Made by a program: the position numbers and the translations under genes. This document shows, in pieces, positions 5,677 through 52,227 of a stretch of DNA of 64,000 nucleotides. The notes under the pieces are model-generated. The model did not search any database. It was given only the letters and a program-made list of their open reading frames with translations, and had not been told where the DNA came from. Source of the DNA: Desulfatiglandales bacterium (GTDB lineage Bacteria > Desulfobacterota > DSM-4660 > Desulfatiglandales > Desulfatiglandaceae); the NCBI GenBank assembly GCA_963662465.1, contig OY759599.1:3008001-3072000 (forward strand). Direction: 5' to 3'. Each line of letters begins with the position of its first letter. The stretch's first letter is position 1.

Positions 5677-6972
5677 TTATCCCCCGGAAGAGCCAATGAT
5701 TTGCATGGTCAGGACCTGCGTCGCAGCGCTGTCGATGCCGCCCACAGCGACGATATTCTGATCCCGCTGAATGGCCGCGGCTTCAGCCCAGTCATCTCCC
5801 TGCCCCAGGTTGAAGCTTGCCACACCGCCGTTACCGAAATCCTCATCCGCAACGCCATCGGCATCGTATCGCAAAACAAGGGCATCATAATCCGTGCCGT
5901 TGTAGGTATTGCCGGCCACGACAATCTCATCCCCCTGCTGAAGACACAGCCTTCGACCATTGTCGTTTCCAGTGCCGCCGTCATAAATCACCACCCCGTC
6001 CGTGCCAAACCCTGAATCCAGTGACCCGTCTGAATTGTATCTGAGAAGGACCACATCCAGATCACTCCCGTTGCTGTTGCTGCCCGACACAACGATTTTT
6101 CCATCTGACTGAATGACGATCCCCCGTGCGCCGGCATTTCCGTGCCCTCCGTCATATCGGACGATTCCGGCCGTGCCGAATGAATTGTCGAGGATGCCGG
6201 CGGCATCGTATCTTGCAGTCAGGAGTTCAAAGCCTTCATCCGTGCTGGTGTAGCCCGTCACAACCATTTTTCCATCCGACTGAATGGCCAGGTCGCGAAA
6301 TCCGTCGTTCCCCTTTCCACCTTCATAGGAGACAACCCCATTAAGCCCGAATGAATCGTCCAGGGAACCATCCTTTTCATATCTCAGGACCATAGCGATG
6401 GATGTTCCATCCCCCGTGCTTCTCGCCGTCACAAGGATACTGCCGTCCCCTTGAACCGCGATGGCCCGACCATAGTCATCCCTGCCGGCATTATCGTAAA
6501 GGACAATGCCGTCCGTGCCGAAAAATGGGTCCAAAGTTCCATTCGCATTCAAGCGCATGAGCAGCATGTCCACATCATTGCCGTTATGGGCATATCCCGT
6601 CAGGGTAATTTTGCCGTCCGAATCCACGACAACCAAACGCCCGCAGTCGTTTCCGTTGCCGCTGTCATAAATGAAAACCCCGTCTGTCCCGAAGGTGGTG
6701 TCCAGGGTCCCATCCGGGTTGTATCGCAAAACGCCTACATCCGAGTCCGTACCGTTCAATATTCCCGTTGAAACCAAAATCTTATGGTCCATTTGAATGG
6801 CCGTTCCCACATAGGAATCCTTGTTCCAGACCCCGTAGAGCGCATATCCGTCCGGAGCATTGAAGGTCGCATCCAGATCGCCCTGCTGCTTCCCGGTGGG
6901 ATTTGGATTGGATGAGGATGAACTGCAGGCGGACAAAACACAGAAAAAAATACAGAACAGCAGTCTCTTCAT
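5677..6972 (-). CDS. Delta-60 repeat lipoprotein (predicted beta-propeller)
   Basis: Lipobox LSAC; about seven repeats of AIQxDGKIVVxG...RYNxDGxLDxxFGxxG. Confidence 0.85.
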   Translation of the reverse strand: MKRLLFCIFFCVLSACSSSSSNPNPTGKQQGDLDATFNAPDGYALYGVWNKDSYVGTAIQMDHKILVSTGILNGTDSDVGVLRYNPDGTLDTTFGTDGVFIYDSGNGNDCGRLVVVDSDGKITLTGYAHNGNDVDMLLMRLNANGTLDPFFGTDGIVLYDNAGRDDYGRAIAVQGDGSILVTARSTGDGTSIAMVLRYEKDGSLDDSFGLNGVVSYEGGKGNDGFRDLAIQSDGKMVVTGYTSTDEGFELLTARYDAAGILDNSFGTAGIVRYDGGHGNAGARGIVIQSDGKIVVSGSNSNGSDLDVVLLRYNSDGSLDSGFGTDGVVIYDGGTGNDNGRRLCLQQGDEIVVAGNTYNGTDYDALVLRYDADGVADEDFGNGGVASFNLGQGDDWAEAAAIQRDQNIVAVGGIDSAATQVLTMQIIGSSGG

Positions 6973-7121
6973 TATGACATCTCCTTCTAAAAATTAAGTG
7001 TTTCAAAGTCCTTAAACCTTTATTTTCGAATATAGTCCATAAGAAAAGCGGGAGCAAGGGAAAGGAGGAGTAGAATGTAAAAAGTCATATTGTCCTCTGC
7101 CTGCCCCCTGTGAACGGTTAC

Positions 7122-7357
7122 GAAATCTCAAAGGAGATCTCGAACAGGGTCCACAGGGGGGTAACCATGATTAAAGGCAAGGGGGGGGGGGGGGGTATTC
7201 GGGCCGGGACATTCAGGTCCTGTACACGGTCATTGCCTTCCAGGAACTGCCGCGCCTGAAAAGGATTGCCCGGGATATTGACCCCAATGTCTTTATGGTG
7301 GTCACGGACACCCTGGAAGTCATGGACATCCGCATCGGGAATCAGCCCCACTGGTGA
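7122..7357 (+). pseudogene. C-terminal remnant of a YitT/DUF2179 protein, frameshifted at a G15 tract
   Basis: EISKEISNRVHRGVTMIKGK / G15 at 7181-7195 / YSGRDIQVLYTVIAFQELPRLKRIARDIDPNVFMVVTDTLEVMDIRIGNQPHW-stop; no 5' part. Confidence 0.75.
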
Positions 7358-43986: not shown

Positions 43987-45606
43987 TTAAGTTTCAGGGC
44001 GGGCACGAAACCTGCCCCCGCGGGTTTTTCGAAGGATGCTCCACAGGATCAAAAGGATTCCCAACCCCAGGGAAATCCGTCCCAGCCAATCGCCATGCCG
44101 GGCAAAGAAGGTGAGCCCCCGGCGAAGGCGGACCTCTCCCGTGAGGGTCGCCTTTTGCCACCAGGGGGTTTGGGCCGTCACCATCCCTTTGGCATCGATC
44201 AGGGCGGAAATACCGGTGTTGGCCACGCGAACCAGATCCCGGCGGCATTCGATGGCGCGAATGGGACTGAAATTGAAGTGATGTTGATACCCCGGCGTGT
44301 TTTTCCACCACCCGTCGTTGGTGATCATGCAGATAAACCCCTTTTGCTCGGTCAGATTTTGAGCGCAGTAGGGGCCGAATACCGATTCAAAACAGACGAT
44401 GGGCAGGATGCTGGTGGAACCGTCGGACAATTCAAAATGAGAACTCGCCTGTCGGTCGCTGTAGGCGCCGTTATACCCCCCAAGCTCAAGAGAGAACCGT
44501 CCCAGAAAGCCCACATATTGCACAAACGGCATTCGCTCGAATATGGGCACCAGTTTGGTCTTGTGATAGAACTGGGGGGCAGCGCCAGGGACCAGGAAAA
44601 GGGCCGTATTAAAGGCCTCGTAGTAAAACCCCTTTTCCCGGTCAAAACGACTCCCCGGCGGAACATCCCGGCCCAGCTTCCGGTAACTGTGGATGCCCAG
44701 GAGGCAATTGAGCCGTGGGTGTTTTTCCCGAAAATCCATTAATTGACGGTAATAGGGCGATGCCAAAGGGTTTTCCTCATCGATCCGTTGTACAATAAAG
44801 GTTTCGGGACCCAACAGATACCGGGTCTCGTCATTGCAAAGCGTCTCCGCAACCCTGAAAAATTCTTCCAGGTGTCGAGCCTGTTTTTCCGGGACAAACT
44901 TTTCCGTGTAGGGATCAAGATTCGGCTGAATCAGAGCGATCTTGACCGTTTCGCCCTCTTCTTGAAAATTGCGGTACAGTTGATACGATAAAAAGGAGGG
45001 GACCCATAACAAAAGAAAGATTCCCACTCCAACAAGGGCCATTGAACCCGCACCCCTTTTTTGACAGATCCCGTATGCCTTGAAGACGGCAAAATTGGTC
45101 AGAATGATCCAGAGGCTTCCACCACGAACACCGGTAAACTCAACCCATTGGATGAGCCCCGGCGCCGTGACCAGGGCGTTCCCCAGGTTAAACCAGGGCC
45201 AGGCCAGATCCCAGATGTTGTGAAAATATTCGTACCCCATCCAGATGAACAGAAAAGGGAAAAACAACGGTATTTTCACGATGGTTCGCACACGGCTTGC
45301 GGACCAGAACACAAGGGCCTGTAAAAGGGCATTGGCCAGGATGATGCATATGGCCCCCAGCCATTGGGCCTGAACAATCCACCAGGATCCCAGGATATTC
45401 CAAAGCAGGAACCCGGCAAAGGCGAGATTAAAGAGGGCGTAAGGGTTCCGGTTGTCAGGATGGTCGTGGATATCCGCTTCCAGTTGAAACAGGGGAACCC
45501 AGGCAATAAAGATCAGAAAGAAAAATACGGGAATAACCCAGGGGATACCCAGCAACAAGCCGCCGGCCAGAGCAAAGGAAAGGTCTTTTCTGATGTTCGA
45601 ATTCAT
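43987..45606 (-). CDS. lnt: Apolipoprotein N-acyltransferase
   Basis: QPN, PET, KTKLVP, VCFES, TNDGWW, ANTGIS. Confidence 0.92.
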   Translation of the reverse strand: MNSNIRKDLSFALAGGLLLGIPWVIPVFFFLIFIAWVPLFQLEADIHDHPDNRNPYALFNLAFAGFLLWNILGSWWIVQAQWLGAICIILANALLQALVFWSASRVRTIVKIPLFFPFLFIWMGYEYFHNIWDLAWPWFNLGNALVTAPGLIQWVEFTGVRGGSLWIILTNFAVFKAYGICQKRGAGSMALVGVGIFLLLWVPSFLSYQLYRNFQEEGETVKIALIQPNLDPYTEKFVPEKQARHLEEFFRVAETLCNDETRYLLGPETFIVQRIDEENPLASPYYRQLMDFREKHPRLNCLLGIHSYRKLGRDVPPGSRFDREKGFYYEAFNTALFLVPGAAPQFYHKTKLVPIFERMPFVQYVGFLGRFSLELGGYNGAYSDRQASSHFELSDGSTSILPIVCFESVFGPYCAQNLTEQKGFICMITNDGWWKNTPGYQHHFNFSPIRAIECRRDLVRVANTGISALIDAKGMVTAQTPWWQKATLTGEVRLRRGLTFFARHGDWLGRISLGLGILLILWSILRKTRGGRFRARPET

Positions 45607-45940
45607 TTGATCTCGAATTTCTGGTGCAAGATAAGCCTGATCCGGCAAAAAGCAACGGGTTATTTTCCCTTTCCAGGATTTTACCATGATGAATCGGAAC
45701 TTTAGGTTCGCCTAGCTGCAATACGGGAACCGGCGGTTCTCTCTCTCGGGCGTTATGATAAATAAAACCAGTTTAATATCAACATGTTACGATTATGGCA
45801 CGACAAATGCAGTGTCATACGGGAGAGGGGAATGCAACCCCCATAAAAAACAGGACGAAAAGGCGCCGGGTATTCCGCGTTTGCTTCGGAAGCGGAGTGC
45901 CCTATTATATTTTATGAGAAGCAATGGGAGGCAAGAAATA

Positions 45941-47296
45941 ATGGAAGAGGAGATTCTCACCGCGGATGATAGTGAACCCCCCAATATCAGGGCGGCATTT
46001 GGGGCTTGTTTAGCGGCGAAAGCGTGTTTACCCGCAAAGCGACACCGGGCCAAAAAAGCCAAGGTCACATACCTGAAAAAGGTGGCGGAAGTATCCAGGT
46101 TCCATGTAAGTCCTGCTGCCTGCGATTTTCAAAAAAAGTATTTTCCTAAAATCAGCCCGGCCGAATGGGACGACTGGCACTGGCAACTGAAAAACCGAAT
46201 CACCAGCCTTTCCCAACTGGCCCCCATGATCCATCTTTCCCATGAGGAAAACGAGGCCATCAACCATTGCAGCAGGGGGCTCCCCCTTGCCGTTACGCCC
46301 TACTATGCAAGCCTCCTGGAACAGGACAATCCTTTTCAACCCTTGCGCCGTGCAGTGATCCCCGTTACCGCCGAGCAGCAATCCTTCCCCGGAGAAGCAT
46401 CAGACCCCCTGGGCGAAGAAAACGACAGTCCGGTTCCCGGTCTAATCCACCGTTATCCCGACAGGGTGTTGTTCCTGGTCACCGATTTTTGCTCCACCTA
46501 CTGCCGTTACTGCACCCGTTCACGGATGGTGGGTCAAAAAGGCGGCGGGACCTTTCATAAGGCTCGCCTTGAAAAGGCGCTGGCATACATCCGGGAACAC
46601 CCGGAAATCAGGGATGTTCTCATTTCGGGCGGGGATCCCTTGACCTTGTCCGATACAAAACTGGAGTGGCTCCTTTCCCGGTTGAAACAGATTTCCCATG
46701 TGGAATTCGTGCGCATCGGCACCAAGGTCCCCGTGGTGCTCCCTCAGCGCATTACCCCGGCACTCACCCGAATGTTGAAACGCTATCATCCCCTGTGGAT
46801 CAGCATCCATTTCACCCATCCCGATGAACTCACCCCTGAAACGGTGCAGGCCTGCGGGCGTCTTGCGGATGCGGGCATTCCACTGGGAAGCCAGACGGTT
46901 CTCCTGAAAGGCATCAATGACCAGGTGGACACCATGAAGCGCCTGGTACAGGGTCTTCTGAAGGCGCGGGTAAGGCCGTACTACCTGTATCAGTGCGATC
47001 CGATCACAGGCTCGGCCCACTTCCGCACCACCGTGGAAAAGGGTCTGGAGATCATCAGGGGGTTGCGGGGGCATACAACGGGATATGCCGTTCCCAACTA
47101 TGTGATTGACGCCCCCGGGGGAGGCGGAAAGATTCCGTTGCTCCCGGAATATTTCATGGGCCGGGACGGGGATGATCTCGTGCTGAAAAACTATCAGGGC
47201 AGGCTTTATCGTTATCCGGATCCCGTGGATCAATGCATGGGAGACACTCCCGCCCCCACCCCTTGTCTTAACGAACAGGAGGGACCTGCATGCTGA
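45941..47296 (+). CDS. KamA-family radical SAM aminomutase (lysine 2,3-aminomutase-like)
   Basis: HRYPDRVL, CSTYCRYC, SGGDPL, YLYQCD, IDAPGGGGKIP. Confidence 0.92.
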   Translation: MEEEILTADDSEPPNIRAAFGACLAAKACLPAKRHRAKKAKVTYLKKVAEVSRFHVSPAACDFQKKYFPKISPAEWDDWHWQLKNRITSLSQLAPMIHLSHEENEAINHCSRGLPLAVTPYYASLLEQDNPFQPLRRAVIPVTAEQQSFPGEASDPLGEENDSPVPGLIHRYPDRVLFLVTDFCSTYCRYCTRSRMVGQKGGGTFHKARLEKALAYIREHPEIRDVLISGGDPLTLSDTKLEWLLSRLKQISHVEFVRIGTKVPVVLPQRITPALTRMLKRYHPLWISIHFTHPDELTPETVQACGRLADAGIPLGSQTVLLKGINDQVDTMKRLVQGLLKARVRPYYLYQCDPITGSAHFRTTVEKGLEIIRGLRGHTTGYAVPNYVIDAPGGGGKIPLLPEYFMGRDGDDLVLKNYQGRLYRYPDPVDQCMGDTPAPTPCLNEQEGPAC

Positions 47297-48291
47297 TCGG
47301 GCTGACCTATGACCTTCGAGACGACTACCTCAATGCCGGTTTCAGCAAAGAGGATACAGCGGAATTTGACAGTGAAGCGGTGATTCTGGGCATTGAAGGG
47401 GCACTGGGGGCATTGGGTTACCGCACGGAGCGGATCGGAAACATCCGGAGTCTGATCCGGAAACTGGATCGGGGCGACACCTGGGACCTGGTTTTCAACA
47501 TTGCCGAGGGCCTCAGGGGATTCGGCAGAGAAGCGCAGGTCCCCGCTCTCCTGGATGCATACGACATTCCCTATACCTTTTCCGATCCCCTGGTGCTGAG
47601 TCTGACGCTGCATAAGGGGATGACCAAGCGGGTCATCCGCGACCTGGGGATTCCCACACCGGACTTTCGCGTCATAGAAACCGGTCGGGATGCGGAAAAA
47701 ATCGACCTTCCCCTTCCCCTCTTTGCCAAACCCGTGGCCGAGGGAACCGGCAAGGGCATCGATGCCGCATCGAAGATCTCCCAAAGGGATCATATTGTCC
47801 CGGTGTGCCGTGGGCTTTTGGGCCGGTTCAACCAGCCGGTTCTGGTGGAAACCTTTCTTCCGGGAAGGGAATTTACCGTGGGCATTGTGGGAACAGGTGA
47901 AAACGCCGTCGTCATCGGCGTGATGGAGGTATTGCTCCGTCAAGAGGCGGAGCAGGGCGCCTATTCCTTCTTGAACAAGGAACGATTCGAGGATCTGGTG
48001 GAATACCGTCTCGTGGAAGATGAGGAATCAAAAAGGGCCGAAGAAGTGGCTTTGGCGTCCTGGCGAGGTCTTGGATGCCGGGATGCGGGACGGGTGGACC
48101 TTCGAAGCGACGGGAACGCCGTCCCCAACTTCATCGAAGTAAATCCCCTGGCCGGGCTCCATCCCGTGCATTCGGATCTTCCCATCCTCTCTTATCTGGC
48201 CGGGGTAACTTATCAGGAACTCATTGAAATGATAATGGAATCTGTCGAACGAAGGCTTCGAAACCAGGAATCGCCGAAAACGGAGGCCTGA
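47290..48291 (+). CDS. D-Ala-D-Ala ligase-like ATP-grasp protein 1
   Basis: VFNIAEG, KPVAEGTGKGI, GREFTVG, RVDLR, EVNPLAGL. Confidence 0.88.
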   Translation: MLIGLTYDLRDDYLNAGFSKEDTAEFDSEAVILGIEGALGALGYRTERIGNIRSLIRKLDRGDTWDLVFNIAEGLRGFGREAQVPALLDAYDIPYTFSDPLVLSLTLHKGMTKRVIRDLGIPTPDFRVIETGRDAEKIDLPLPLFAKPVAEGTGKGIDAASKISQRDHIVPVCRGLLGRFNQPVLVETFLPGREFTVGIVGTGENAVVIGVMEVLLRQEAEQGAYSFLNKERFEDLVEYRLVEDEESKRAEEVALASWRGLGCRDAGRVDLRSDGNAVPNFIEVNPLAGLHPVHSDLPILSYLAGVTYQELIEMIMESVERRLRNQESPKTEA

Positions 48292-48296
48292 TCCCC

Positions 48297-49307
48297 ATGA
48301 AAGCGGTTATCGTTTATGATAAAATCGCCGAAAAGATGACCGATCCGGACCACAAGGATGTGCTCGAACAGGTCCGGGCGGTCGGCGAGGTTCTGGGCGC
48401 CATGGGATATACGCCCCTCGAACTGGGGATCACCATGGACCTGGCTAACCTGGAGGAGAAACTGAACGCTTTTTGCCCCGACGTTGTGTTCAACCTGGTG
48501 GAGTCTCTATCAGGCGCCGGCCGGTTGATCCACCTGGCGCCCGCCGTCCTGGAGTTTCTTGGGTTCCCTTATACGGGCGCCCCCGCGGATGCGTTGTATC
48601 AAACCTCTAATAAGGCCGTTTCAAAGCGGCTGCTGCAAGGATCGGATCTCCCCACCCCGGAGGCATTTTTTCAGGAAGGCGGTCTAAACCATTTAATGCC
48701 CCGGAAGGGAACCCACTACATCATCAAATCCGTCTGGGAACATGCCTCCATCGGGATCGAGGATGATTCGGTGGTGGTGGTTCAGGATAAAGCGCAACTG
48801 GTCCAGGCCATGGCATCCCGAAGAAAGGCCCTCGGAGGGAGCTGCTTTGCGGAGAGATATATTGAAGGGCGGGAATTCAATCTTTCCCTGTTGACGTCCC
48901 CTGAAGGCCCTCTGCTGCTCCCCCCCGCGGAAATCCGGTTTGACCGGTTCCCTCCCGGAAAACGAAAAATCGTGGGGTACACGGCCAAGTGGGATACGGC
49001 TTCGTTTGAATACCATCATACCCCGCGCAGTTTCCAATTTCCCCCGGAAGATGCGCCCCTGCTGGACCGCATGGCGGATTTGGCCAAAAGGTGCTGGCGT
49101 CTTTTCGGCATCCGGGGTTACGCAAGGGTGGATTTCAGGGTTGACCATGACAATAACCCGTGGATACTGGAGGTCAATGCAAACCCCTGCCTGTCACCGG
49201 ACGCGGGATTCGCGGCCGCCGCCGCCCGTTCGGGCCTTCCCTTTGGGGAAGTGGTCGAAAGAATCGTAAACGAAACGCTCAACCGGGAACATTTGCAATC
49301 CCTCTGA
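48297..49307 (+). CDS. D-Ala-D-Ala ligase-like ATP-grasp protein 2
   Basis: VFNLVES, KSVWEHASIGI, GREFNL, YARVDFR, EVNANPCL. Confidence 0.88.
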   Translation: MKAVIVYDKIAEKMTDPDHKDVLEQVRAVGEVLGAMGYTPLELGITMDLANLEEKLNAFCPDVVFNLVESLSGAGRLIHLAPAVLEFLGFPYTGAPADALYQTSNKAVSKRLLQGSDLPTPEAFFQEGGLNHLMPRKGTHYIIKSVWEHASIGIEDDSVVVVQDKAQLVQAMASRRKALGGSCFAERYIEGREFNLSLLTSPEGPLLLPPAEIRFDRFPPGKRKIVGYTAKWDTASFEYHHTPRSFQFPPEDAPLLDRMADLAKRCWRLFGIRGYARVDFRVDHDNNPWILEVNANPCLSPDAGFAAAAARSGLPFGEVVERIVNETLNREHLQSL

Positions 49308-49322
49308 ACAAAGATCGCAACC

Positions 49323-49820
49323 ATGCATCCAAAACCCATGCGCTTTAGAGAAGCGCCCGTTCAGGGCGACAGGAAAAGGGTTCGAGAGATCATTGCCTCC
49401 TCCGGATTTTTTTCCCACGAAGAGATCGAGGTAGCCGACGAGCTGGTGCAGGAGCGACTTGGCAAAGGGATTTCAAGCGGATACCTGTTTCTGTTTGCGG
49501 AAGTGGAAGGCCGCGTCGTGGGATATGCCTGTTACGGTCCCATTCCCTGCACCCTTCAAAGCTACGACCTTTACTGGATTGCCGTGGAGGAGACCCTGCG
49601 GGGGGCGGGGGTCGGCCGGGAGTTGCTTCGAAGATCCGAACAGGCCATGGCACGAGCCGGGGGCACGCGCATCTACGTTGAAACCAGCTCCCGTGAACAA
49701 TACGGATCCACCAGGGCCTTCTACGACGCCTGTGGTTATGGGGAAGCGGCCGTGCTGGAAGATTTCTACTCCCCCGGGGATCACAAAGTGATTTATCTGA
49801 AGGTGCTGCCGGGAAAATAA
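49323..49820 (+). CDS. GNAT-family N-acetyltransferase
   Basis: LYWIAV...RGAGVGRELL, RAFYDACGY. Confidence 0.9.
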   Translation: MHPKPMRFREAPVQGDRKRVREIIASSGFFSHEEIEVADELVQERLGKGISSGYLFLFAEVEGRVVGYACYGPIPCTLQSYDLYWIAVEETLRGAGVGRELLRRSEQAMARAGGTRIYVETSSREQYGSTRAFYDACGYGEAAVLEDFYSPGDHKVIYLKVLPGK

Positions 49821-49847: not shown

Positions 49848-50231
49848 CTAATATTCCCCGAGTCCTTGCAGAATACCCTTGGTCAGGGTCACCAGTTGCT
49901 CCATGGTGAGCGGTTTTTTCATGATTTCAAATGCCAGTCCTTCCCGCTTTGCCTGGTTCAGTTCTTCCAGAAATTCACCATAAAAGGCCGTAATAATGTA
50001 AATGGGAACATCCGGATCGATGGCTCTCAATTTTGCCAGGGTTTCCACGCCGTTCATGCCGGGCATTTTAAGATCAAGGTATATCAGATCATATTTCTGT
50101 TCTTTGGCTATTTCAACACCCTTTTGTCCGGACGGCGCGGTGTCTACCTGGAAATCGGTTTCTTCCAGGGCAAGGAGGAAAACCTTCCTGATGGCCTCGT
50201 CGTCATCGATTACAAGAATTCGTTTGATCAT
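49848..50231 (-). CDS. Single-domain response regulator
   Basis: ILVIDDD, LDLKMPGMNG, KP; GGAG RBS before ATG 50231. Confidence 0.9.
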   Translation of the reverse strand: MIKRILVIDDDEAIRKVFLLALEETDFQVDTAPSGQKGVEIAKEQKYDLIYLDLKMPGMNGVETLAKLRAIDPDVPIYIITAFYGEFLEELNQAKREGLAFEIMKKPLTMEQLVTLTKGILQGLGEY

Positions 50232-52227
50232 CGGTTGTCTCCTTTTTGGATTGTTGATTGTTGATTGTTGATTGGTGATTGTTGATTGGTGATTGGTGAT
50301 TGGTGATTGTTGATTGGTGATTGGGCAGTTCCATGATGAAGGTCGTTCCTTTTCCCAGTTCACTCTCACAGCGTATCTTCCCGCCCTGAGATTCGATAAT
50401 GCTTCTGGATACGGAAAGTCCCAAACCGGTTCCTTTTCCCACGGGCTTGGTGGTGAAAAAAGGATCAAAAATCCTTTCCATCTGTTCGGCGGGGATACCG
50501 CGGCCCGTATCACTGACGGCGATCTCAATCCATTCTCCGGCCGACCGCACTTCAAATCGGATTTCTTTTGTCTTGGTTTCATGCACGGCATCCAGGGCAT
50601 TGGTCATGAGATTGAGGAAGACCTGTTGCAGGCTGTTTCCCTTGGCCCGGATCTCCCGACATTCCTCCGGGATACAGCTTATGACCCGGATGTTGTCCTT
50701 CTCGATCCGGTAGGCCAAAAGCCTTGACACCCGTTCAAAGATATCCGCACAGTCTATCCGTCGAAATCCTTCCGCCTCCAGTTGCCCCATGTGAGAAAAA
50801 GTCAACAGGTTCCGGACCAGGTCCACGCATCTCCCGGTTTCACGCAGGGCATCTTTTAAAATCCCGTGCCGTTTGTCCTCCCGGGGGGTATGTTTGAGGC
50901 AGTACTCGATAAACCCGTTTATGCCCATCATGGGATTGTTCAATTCATGGGCAATGCCGCCCGCCATCATGCCCAGGGCCGTCATCTTTTCCGTCATGAT
51001 CCGGCTCTGCTCCTCAAGCCTGCGAGCGGTCACATCCCTGATGAGCGCCCACAGGCAGCCGGGAGTTCCCTGTCCATCCTTTGTGAGCCAGAGCCTGACG
51101 GCCGCCGCAAAAACAGACCCGTCCTTGCGCACATACTCCTTTTCGTATTCATCCGAGTATCCCCTCCGCATGACCTGCTTCTCGAGTATCTCCGCTTCCA
51201 TGCGATGCCATTTCAAGGGCGTCAAATCTTTGCGGTTGAATTTTGTCAGCTCATCCCTTCCATAGCCGGTCATATCCAGAAATGCCTGGTTTGCATCCAG
51301 GAATCTGCCGTTCATGGCACAAAAGGTAATGCCGTCCCGGCTCGATTCATAGAGGGTTCGATACTTCTCTTCGCTGTTTTTCAATGCCTCCAGGGTTTTG
51401 ATGCGATCCCGCATGTCCCGCGCCACAAGGACGGCGCCGGGAGAATCGTCCTTTCCATGGCTAAGCGTCGAGGCTGATACCTGCACGGGAATCAACACCC
51501 CGTCTTTTGTCCGAAGCTGAACATCGCTGTTCCGGTACATCAGGCCTCTGATTTCATCAGGGCCGGAGAGCGCCGCGGGAGTGAGCAGCAGGGAGGCGGA
51601 TGGGGAATCCTCAAAAAGGCGGGCCAACGGCTTTCCCGTGATCTCGCCCGCTGCATATCCGGACAGGGAAACCAGGGCTTCGTTCACGGTGCGGATCATG
51701 CCGTCGCCGGAAACCACCATCACCGCATCGACCATGGAAAGGAGAATGTTTTCCAGATAACCCCTGGCCTTCTCCACCTCGATCTTTTCCACCAGTTCAC
51801 GCCGTTGCCGATCAAGCTCCAGGAAAACCCTGACCTTGGCCAGCATGATCTCGGGCAGGTAGGGCTTGGTCACAAAGTCCACGGCCCCGGCCGCATACCC
51901 CCTGAAAACATGCTGCTCATCCGAATAAACGGCCGACAGAAAGATGATGGGAAGTCGCCGGGTTTTTTCATCGCCTCTCAGGTATTCGGCCAACTCATAA
52001 CCATCCATCTCCGGCATCTGCACATCCAGGATGGCCAGGGCAAAATCGTGGTGCAACGTGGCTTTCAGAGCCTCATTTCCGCTGCTTGCACGAATGGTCC
52101 GCGCCCCCGTTTCCCGCAACACCCTTTCGAGGGCCAGCAGGTTTTCGGGCCGGTCGTCCACGATGAGGATTTCTTGCGCTTCGTTTGGATTGTTGATTGG
52201 TGATTGTTGATTGTTGATTGCCGTCAT
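50203..52227 (-). CDS. REC-PAS-PAS histidine kinase
   Basis: LIVDDRPEN, two PAS, AHELNNP, GKGTGLGL; both termini encoded by 7-bp repeats. Confidence 0.9.
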   Translation of the reverse strand: MTAINNQQSPINNPNEAQEILIVDDRPENLLALERVLRETGARTIRASSGNEALKATLHHDFALAILDVQMPEMDGYELAEYLRGDEKTRRLPIIFLSAVYSDEQHVFRGYAAGAVDFVTKPYLPEIMLAKVRVFLELDRQRRELVEKIEVEKARGYLENILLSMVDAVMVVSGDGMIRTVNEALVSLSGYAAGEITGKPLARLFEDSPSASLLLTPAALSGPDEIRGLMYRNSDVQLRTKDGVLIPVQVSASTLSHGKDDSPGAVLVARDMRDRIKTLEALKNSEEKYRTLYESSRDGITFCAMNGRFLDANQAFLDMTGYGRDELTKFNRKDLTPLKWHRMEAEILEKQVMRRGYSDEYEKEYVRKDGSVFAAAVRLWLTKDGQGTPGCLWALIRDVTARRLEEQSRIMTEKMTALGMMAGGIAHELNNPMMGINGFIEYCLKHTPREDKRHGILKDALRETGRCVDLVRNLLTFSHMGQLEAEGFRRIDCADIFERVSRLLAYRIEKDNIRVISCIPEECREIRAKGNSLQQVFLNLMTNALDAVHETKTKEIRFEVRSAGEWIEIAVSDTGRGIPAEQMERIFDPFFTTKPVGKGTGLGLSVSRSIIESQGGKIRCESELGKGTTFIMELPNHQSTITNHQSPINNHQSTINNQQSKKETTDDQTNSCNR
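50250..50322. repeat. 7-bp tandem repeat (ATTGTTG/ATTGGTG), about 10 units
   Basis: Directly visible; same family at 52190-52220, 52297-52329, 53693-53726, 59463-59503. Confidence 0.9.

Follow-up and report, generated by a model that had tools for sequence, protein, structure and literature searches.

Organisation and distribution of the cassette

The 64,000-nucleotide (nt) stretch of contig OY759599.1 from a Desulfatiglandales bacterium (hereafter the window, in whose numbering positions are given) carries a cassette of four genes, all on the + strand, at 45941..49820. The first, kamA (45941..47296; 451 aa), encodes a radical S-adenosylmethionine (SAM) and pyridoxal phosphate (PLP) protein of the KamA lysine 2,3-aminomutase family, with an N-terminal extension of about 65 aa. 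It is followed by lig1 (47290..48291; 333 aa) and lig2 (48297..49307; 336 aa), which encode two Ddl-like ATP-grasp ligases, the first being the constant partner of KamA, and by a gene for a small N-acetyltransferase, GNAT (49323..49820; 165 aa). An open reading frame check placed the genes at the coordinates of the initial annotation and bore out the tight packing described there, with the kamA stop and lig1 start overlapping by 7 nt and with gaps of 5 nt between lig1 and lig2 and 15 nt between lig2 and the GNAT gene. The kamA frame is open back to 45755; its start is most likely 45941, judging from a ribosome-binding site GGGAGG (45927..45932, + strand) 8 nt upstream, from the N-termini of cassette orthologues, which begin MEEE or MKK, and from a promoter motif situated downstream of 45755.

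A close Lig1 orthologue (E < 1e-90) was present in 15 of 41 genomes (this genome and 40 relatives), with a patchy distribution that left it in only 4 of 11 genomes of the same genus. All 15 fetched loci encode KamA, a Lig1-like and a Lig2-like protein, and 13 also encode GNAT, which was not found within the fetched stretch of the other two (L023 and L027); at two of the 15 the order is Lig-Lig-GNAT-KamA. Over one genome per species (185,579 species), at least 594 of 600 pattern matches were confirmed. The best 80 loci, ranked by Lig1 similarity, span Desulfobacterota, Bacteroidota, Planctomycetota, Acidobacteriota, Bacillota, KSB1, Bdellovibrionota and Alphaproteobacteria according to record titles. 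This set was counted only where enough sequence was available on the relevant side and, being picked by Lig1 similarity, is uninformative on forms lacking Lig1. Within it, KamA lies directly upstream of Lig1 in 74 of 75 loci, Lig2 directly downstream of Lig1 in 70 of 73 and GNAT downstream in 53 of 62, with all four genes together in 50 of 60. The ligases are kept where GNAT is missing, at six KamA-Lig1-Lig2 loci and three KamA-Lig1 loci. The claim of the initial annotation that similar clusters occur in other bacteria is therefore clearly upheld, by the 15 fetched loci as by the 50 of 60.

Gene fusions provide the strongest computational evidence for a single pathway. A search run without a word index returned 666 representatives (50% identity clusters) at E <= 1e-30, together with 719 longer proteins at the same threshold. 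Among the 120 longer proteins listed, 25 are KamA-Lig1 fusions, most of the remainder are Lig1-Lig2 double ATP-grasp fusions and two are Lig1-Lig2-GNAT fusions; a Lig2-GNAT fusion occurs at locus L114. Each adjacent pair of the cassette is thus found somewhere as one polypeptide, which points to a single pathway and suggests the order KamA, Lig1, Lig2, GNAT. The fusions and the two-gene versions, which have KamA and Lig1 only (L046, L048 and L082), mark these two proteins as the minimal core and Lig2 and GNAT as its extension. The survey supports the cassette as one conserved functional unit, real and widespread. A search of the full-text literature, with subscription journals outside its coverage, found no paper on the kamA-lig1-lig2-GNAT cassette and no identified product in print, in agreement with the initial annotation.

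Clustering of the neighbours across the 80 loci revealed no further universal gene; Fpg, PhoU-like, PHO4, lysA and transporter genes are lineage-specific. Next to the two-gene versions, the following genes are transporter-like when their N-termini are read by eye (a MarC/NAAT-like protein, an efflux pair and an AzlC-like protein). At six loci of Smithella/Syntrophaceae type (L075, L085, L094, L101, L102 and L080), a run on the same strand, 0.1-1.9 kb after GNAT, comprises PhoU_div (DUF47), a PHO4 phosphate transporter and then lysA, 1.8 kb downstream, whose product scores 300.4 bits against TIGR01048 (cut-off 297.9). This synteny, which is lineage-specific, brings lysine synthesis close to the cassette. 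At four of the six loci (L085, L094, L101 and L102), lysA is followed by a 160-aa gene, whose L085 version is YbaK-like, below the cut-off (141.3 vs 153.25 bits). In the closest relative, L021 (G010:C7, ~6180-7161), Lig2 is matched in two overlapping pieces (query 1-184 and 181-327), suggestive of a frameshift in lig2, of a pseudogene or of misassembly; the same genome has a second, fragmentary lig1 copy with an internal TAG on its contig C2.

Predicted enzymes and pathway

The cassette KamA has the LAM_C and Radical_SAM domains and exceeds the cut-off of the KamA family model TIGR00238 (373.8 bits, cut-off 199.2). The substrate-specific models rank AblA first and arginine 2,3-aminomutase last, with all three below their cut-offs: the AblA equivalog TIGR03820 gave 486.8 bits (cut-off 525.4), the glutamate 2,3-aminomutase model 447.5 (650) and the arginine 2,3-aminomutase model 417.1 (600). 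Since it falls short of these three, the protein is by profile a KamA-family member claimed by no curated equivalog; the EpmB model gave 265.8 bits, below 369.3. AblA acts with AblB in the pathway to N-epsilon-acetyl-beta-lysine known from methanogens, green sulfur bacteria and some Bacillota.

KamA aligns to the solved lysine 2,3-aminomutase of Clostridium subterminale (2A5H) with E 3e-141 and retains the equivalents of D293, D330 and K337 within YQCD and IDAPGGGGK; in that enzyme the two aspartates bind the epsilon-ammonium group of lysine and K337 binds PLP. An alignment of 24 cassette KamAs (A2) shows C184, C188 and C191 (CxxxCxxC), D353, D390 and K397 to be invariant, so that the radical SAM triad, PLP lysine and pair of lysine-type aspartates noted in the initial annotation hold for the orthologues as well. 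Lysine is the best supported candidate substrate, a prediction that depends on these residues and not on a curated call, given the score below the AblA cut-off. The initial annotation had allowed beta-lysine or beta-arginine as the product: the residues favour the former, and beta-arginine appears less likely because the arginine model scores lowest and AblA highest, although all three lie below cut-off.

Both ligases match the Pfam domain Dala_Dala_lig_C (Lig1 73.2 bits, Lig2 59.2 bits) and their solved relatives are all Ddl or VanA, but every Ddl or Van model stays far below cut-off, including NF002378 (134 and 104.5 bits for Lig1 and Lig2, cut-off 243) and TIGR01205 (98 and 83.4 bits, cut-off 245.65). 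They share with Ddl and Van enzymes the fold and the residues for ATP, Mg and phosphoryl transfer: in an alignment with E. coli DdlB, the equivalents of K144, K215, R255, D257, E270 and N272 are kept, and the ATP, Mg and catalytic residues are invariant in the ligase alignments A3 and A4. They differ from them in that the equivalents of E15 (of GGxSxE), H63 and Y216, which form the first D-Ala site (D-Ala1) of Ddl, are replaced or absent in both (positions 215-216 read K-E in Lig1 and K-W in Lig2), and in that their genes are linked to kamA, not to mur. A housekeeping Ddl with GGWSKE and the D-Ala1-site residues is encoded elsewhere in the genome (C1:5778235, 177 bits), 2.7 Mb from the cassette. 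Identity is 24% between Lig1 and Lig2, 27% between Ddl and Lig1 and 22% between Ddl and Lig2. Weaker similarities link Lig1 to cyanophycin synthetase (29.3 bits) and Lig2 to TTL, RimK and ATPgrasp_ST; in the ESM Atlas, Lig2 met only generic RimK and ATP-grasp clusters (0.88-0.90). The proteins were rightly described as non-canonical Ddl-like ligases that lack GGxSxE and differ from each other, and both are expected to be catalytically active ATP-grasp enzymes that use substrates different from D-Ala.

GNAT contains Acetyltransf_1 (Pfam) and scores 43.6 bits against a RimI-like model (cut-off 86.4). Its eight NCBIfam matches (E <= 0.01) are of RimI, ArsN, HaaN and AAC type, with no AblB-named model among them. 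The closest solved relative is 2R7H (E 4.9e-37), named "putative D-alanine N-acetyltransferase" by its depositors.

Relatives of the cassette encode an accessory deacetylase before or after GNAT at 16 of 62 loci, fused to GNAT at two of them (L029 and L033). It comprises about 584 aa, with an HDAC domain preceded at the N-terminus by a weakly GNAT-like domain. Solved acetylpolyamine amidohydrolases (APAH) are its nearest relatives (6phr 243.3, 9gkz 235.9, 3men 206.3 and 3q9b 198.8 bits), well above single-domain HDAH/HDAC6 chains of protein-deacetylase type (about 124 bits), and this ranking points to a small amine as the predicted substrate. Its occurrence suggests that the acetyl group acts as a reversible switch or as protection and that the pathway need not end with acetylation.

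We assign a probability of roughly 50% to the following reading of the four genes as an operon. KamA would convert L-lysine to beta-lysine, the two ligases would use ATP to form one or two amide bonds that incorporate beta-lysine into a small, cationic, polyamine-like amide, and GNAT would acetylate one amine of that product. Lig1 would act on beta-lysine directly, as it is the sole ligase in two-gene versions and in KamA fusions, and Lig2 and GNAT would act after it, as Lig2-GNAT and Lig1-Lig2-GNAT fusions exist. In the relatives concerned, the acetylation could be reversed by the APAH-type deacetylase, whose occurrence favours a small cationic polyamine-like amide over a cell-wall precursor. 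Candidate physiological roles are those of a compatible solute, a polyamine substitute or a nitrogen reserve.

N-terminal motif of KamA and putative upstream control region

The roughly 65 residues that precede the 2A5H-aligned core in cassette KamAs, and that 2A5H does not have, are unconserved except for one acidic-EPP motif. In the window, where the tail reads MEEEILTADDSEPPN, this motif is D-D-S-E-P-P-N at kamA codons 9-15 (45965..45985, + strand). P13 and P14 are invariant and E12 is kept in more than 90% of the 24 KamA sequences. Of 74 complete N-termini, 67 match the pattern acidic-[ED]PP, whereas 500 shuffles gave 2.3 matches on average and 8 at most; the next residue is Ser in 33 and Gly in 32 of the 67 strict matches. 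A looser pattern fits 70 of the 74, and in 43 of these the initiator Met stands exactly 11 residues before the Glu. Among the 15 relatives' loci, 14 have the motif, the exception (L035) being a KamA without the extension; the two-gene versions of Bacillota (L048 and L082) are without it too. An E-P-P in the first ligase of L035 was considered as a transplanted tail motif and rejected: that reading frame is open 32 codons further upstream, and the E-P-P aligns with the internal E-E-T-A-E-F-D loop of Lig1, being probably an internal loop, and was not counted.

The motif is also written in rare codons. At the first Pro, CCT is used 54 times and CCC 11 times out of 65, CCA and CCG never, against a same-gene background of 17% CCT and 41% CCG; at the second, CCA is used in 30 of 65 (background 8%). 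The Gly codon is GGT in 29 of 32 (background 15%) and the Ser codon AGT in 20 of 33 (background 10%). The effect is large, though nominal P values overstate it because the loci are related. Two explanations at the RNA level were rejected. A universal hairpin downstream of the motif is not seen in 72-nt windows (mean z -0.76, with 12 of 71 below -2), strong stems at the motif being confined to one lineage. Pairing of the CCUCC codons with the gene's own ribosome-binding site is not favoured over pairing with those of other loci (duplex -8.83 own vs -8.71 cross, permutation p 0.35), and it is contradicted by Bacteroidota loci that keep the codons without such a site. In the one Desulfobacterota lineage with strong stems (L042, L049, L052 and L076), the Pro-Pro-Ser codons form the 5' arm of an 11-bp hairpin within about 70 nt from the E-P-P codons onward (z down to -5.3), and at L052 a CCT-to-CCC change is matched by GGAG-to-GGGG on the opposite arm.

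AlphaFold2 models show a confident KamA core, with residues 1-51 below a predicted local distance difference test (pLDDT) score of 50; in a natural KamA-Lig1 fusion, residues 1-52 are likewise disordered and below 50. No docking of the tail was seen in either model, which is weak evidence. Of 15 KamA-Lig1 fusions read, 11 keep xPP, two have [ED]PLG and two show no clear motif, so the motif is not simply a tether for Lig1. Two readings remain for the E-P-P element, a short linear motif for a partner or a translational pause site. The near-invariant acidic-E-P-P-(S/G) motif, with its rare codons and disordered tail, is newly described here.

A speculative extension of the pause reading concerns elongation factor P (EF-P). 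Codons 12-15 would form a programmed ribosome pause relieved by beta-lysylated EF-P, so that KamA synthesis would be gated at the ribosome by beta-lysine/EF-P status or by a polyamine-like product competing with EF-P. The beta-lysine amides of the cassette would then represent a novel class and be subject to a novel form of feedback control, for which the eukaryotic PPW pause, where polyamines act on eIF5A, offers an analogy. The genome encodes efp next to epmA (about C1:5883300-5884800, L136), with the EF-P loop PGKGQ and an epmA score of 332.6 bits (cut-off 286.9). It has three KamA-family genes including the cassette copy, and none reaches the EpmB cut-off; the other two, at C1:595431-596468 (L118) and C1:4882650-4883594 (L119), comprise a 609-aa form beside a NAAT-family transporter and a 448-aa AblA-like form (422.9 bits). 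The efp-epmA pair and the three paralogues below the EpmB cut-off make a link between EF-P, beta-lysine and pausing conceivable, but the full scheme is a long shot.

Upstream of kamA, TGGCACGACAAATGCA (45796..45811, + strand) lies 145 nt before the gene and resembles a sigma-54-type -24/-12 promoter, whose consensus is TGGCAC-N5-TTGCW with GG at -24 and GC at -12. It is the sole TGGCAC-N5-WTGCW match in the 64 kb (0.14 expected), with canonical GG/GC spacing. Among 15 loci of relatives, 10 have the same motif before kamA, and in 11 loci it can be aligned position by position. Of 76 loci from the set of 80, 17 have it within 600 nt, which makes it a lineage feature and not a universal one; other lineages have sigma-70-like boxes when inspected by eye, and no good sigma-70 match was found upstream of kamA on the + strand here. 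Genome-wide, the strict motif has 141 matches where our own estimate of chance is about 90, so the motif by itself would not carry the promoter call, which depends on where it lies and on its conservation.

Two putative enhancer-binding-protein sites stand further upstream on the + strand, 30 nt apart: a half-palindrome GGAACTTTAGGTTCG (45696..45710) with one mismatch to GGAAY-N5-RTTCY, and an activator-like palindrome GGAACCGGCGGTTCT (45726..45740) with no mismatches, which aligns with the GGAAC-N5-GTTC elements of relatives. Sites of this type, often paired 30 nt apart, lie upstream of the sigma-54 motif at 9 of 15 motif-bearing related loci, although in the window the pattern by itself is no more frequent than chance predicts (46 matches vs 44 expected). 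Between them and the promoter lies an IHF-like site, TATCAACATGTTA (45777..45789, + strand), which fits the IHF consensus, WATCAANNNNTTR; its AATATCA is partly conserved in the alignment of related loci. Transcription of the cassette from a sigma-54 promoter is likely, and the conserved putative promoter with its paired upstream activator sites is, like the tail motif, new here.

The genome has 53 strong enhancer-binding-protein genes, none of which adjoins the cassette; such a gene does adjoin it at 11 of the 80 loci, and the best match in this genome to one of those neighbours, C1:730696-731730 (63% identity, 465.8 bits; next 303.5), is a candidate cassette activator. A regulon search combining activator sites and the sigma-54 motif returned seven genome candidates with no common theme. 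At C1:431588 (L131), the sigma-54 motif TGGCATACCTCTTGCT and two GGAAC-type sites 30 nt apart precede an operon for two small proteins without a recognised family, a PALP-fold PLP enzyme, DUF1611 and a long creatininase-domain protein, which may be under a related activator. Riboswitches of ablA are treated in one paper (PMC9337991). An Rfam search of 45500-46100 gave one chance-level match (E 0.95).

Downstream, a terminator-like hairpin with a T run (49894..49915, + strand) begins 74 nt past the GNAT stop; it comes from a consensus scan in which the number of terminator-like sites in the region was not above that in shuffles. The cassette is flanked upstream by divergent genes (Lnt-like, a PlsC-like acyltransferase and an M48 peptidase) and downstream by convergent ones (a response regulator, a kinase and CheB/CheR), and among the 15 fetched loci these flanks on both sides are common only to the closest relative. 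The convergent open reading frame at 49848-50600 (- strand) has a response-regulator receiver domain (residues 128-239). It is open far upstream through a repetitive ITNQQSP/ITNHQST/ITNQQST stretch and overlaps the 3' end of a hybrid kinase frame (50203-52227); its real start is probably near 50231.

Alternative explanations, known systems and significance

Bacteria and archaea are known to use beta-lysine as a precursor of compatible solutes, as a building block of antibiotics and for the modification of EF-P. The cassette probably builds a small beta-lysine compound, and in doing so joins two known kinds of chemistry, beta-lysine metabolism and ATP-grasp amide ligation. Carnosine synthase, glutathionylspermidine synthetase and Ngg (for N-acetylglutaminylglutamine-amide) are ATP-grasp ligases acting on beta-amino acids, polyamines and acetylated dipeptides, and their acyl-phosphate chemistry leading to small cytoplasmic amides serves as a working analogy only. 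Like the Lig1-Lig2-GNAT fusions, Ngg unites GNAT and ATP-grasp domains, whereas the cassette ligases sit on the Ddl branch. A further parallel is polyamine acetylation and deacetylation by SpeG-type GNATs and APAH enzymes, since relatives pair GNAT with an APAH-like deacetylase and fuse the two at two loci. Here, however, the pair sits inside a biosynthetic cassette, the deacetylase has an extra GNAT-like N-terminal domain, and it is missing from the cassette of this genome.

Several observations weigh against a polyamine-like amide of beta-lysine. KamA falls below the AblA cut-off, and the nearest families of GNAT, itself below the RimI-like cut-off, are protein N-acetyltransferases. No transporter, peptidase or second-substrate gene is consistently linked across the 80 loci, which gives no lead to the partner of beta-lysine. 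The genome under study has no close APAH-type gene, its best match being 34% identical and outside the cassette, and the polyamine-like reading thus leans on relatives. Many host lineages are, by record titles, freshwater or sludge anaerobes, which gives no argument for an osmolyte, and the conserved peptide motif on KamA is unexplained by a small-molecule pathway.

This last point, with its disordered peptide and invariant PP, would fit modification of a protein or peptide: like RimK, LysX and tubulin-tyrosine ligases, Lig1 and Lig2 would attach beta-lysine or a different residue to a protein, amines of proteins would be the targets of GNAT and the deacetylase, and the acidic E-P-P tail could be the modified or recognised peptide. 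The RimI-type affinity of GNAT, though below cut-off, and the weak TTL, RimK and ATPgrasp_ST matches of Lig2 lean the same way. We regard this as unlikely, because the deacetylase resembles acetylpolyamine amidohydrolases, which act on small molecules, much more than it does protein deacetylases, the cassette includes no conserved gene for a candidate substrate across the 80 loci and, as a weak point, the tail does not dock in the structural models. The genome moreover already has EpmA beside efp for beta-lysylation of EF-P. EpmA/EpmB resemble the cassette in that a KamA-family aminomutase makes beta-lysine, but their attachment enzyme is a paralogue of lysyl-tRNA synthetase instead of an ATP-grasp ligase, efp-epmA lies elsewhere in this genome and the cassette KamA is below the EpmB cut-off.

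Iterative ligases might instead build a homo-oligomer or polymer of beta-lysine, as a cyanophycin-like nitrogen reserve or a cationic polymer, with acetylation as cap or neutralisation. Two different ligases could prime and elongate, Lig1 has its weak cyanophycin-synthetase match, sigma-54 control is common for nitrogen-related genes, and lysA lies 1.8 kb downstream at the six Smithella-type loci. Against this improbable scheme stand the single ligase of the two-gene versions, the lack of any polymer-degrading enzyme or granule protein in the neighbourhood of the 80 loci and the APAH-type deacetylase, which fits small amines. An exported secondary metabolite containing beta-lysine (antibiotic, siderophore-like or signalling amide) is harder still to accept: ATP-grasp L-amino-acid ligases do make dipeptide antibiotics in other systems, and the three two-gene loci adjoin transporter genes by N-terminal sequence, but across the 80 loci the four-gene cassette has no conserved association with genes for export, resistance or tailoring, and its very wide, uniform distribution is more in keeping with housekeeping or stress metabolism.

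Of the systems described so far, AblA/AblB comes closest and likewise pairs a KamA-family lysine 2,3-aminomutase with an acetyl-CoA-dependent acetyltransferase, and the cassette KamA both scores best against AblA and keeps the lysine-binding aspartates. It is very doubtful that the cassette is simply such a pathway: two ATP-grasp ligases lie between the aminomutase and the acetyltransferase and are fused in many species; Lig1 adjoins KamA at 74 of 75 loci, is fused to it in many proteins and persists where GNAT is absent; and GNAT is a small, RimI-like single domain of 165 aa without an AblB-named match among its eight. Of the products proposed in the initial annotation (acetylated peptide, polymer or cell-wall precursor), the idea of one functional unit stands, while an alternative peptidoglycan precursor, in which the Ddl-like enzymes would make a wall depsipeptide or dipeptide, is extremely unlikely despite the Ddl branch of both ligases and the name given to 2R7H, because a complete housekeeping Ddl is encoded elsewhere, D-Ala1-binding residues are replaced with Ddl/Van equivalog scores far below cut-off, no mur or van genes are linked in the window or the 80 loci, radical SAM aminomutases have no place in known wall pathways and relatives carry an APAH-type deacetylase.

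The small beta-lysine compound favoured here would have consequences beyond this genome. The cassette, present in at least about 600 mostly anaerobic species of many phyla, implies that anaerobic communities of sediment, sludge and gut contain a beta-lysine metabolite that is undescribed and probably abundant, and that could prove to be a new compound of polyamine-like or osmoprotective type. Its regulation can be approached directly through the E-P-P element and the sigma-54 architecture. Naming the product would assign a function to thousands of genes annotated "D-alanine--D-alanine ligase" and would give the Ddl branch within the ATP-grasp enzymes a further class of substrate.

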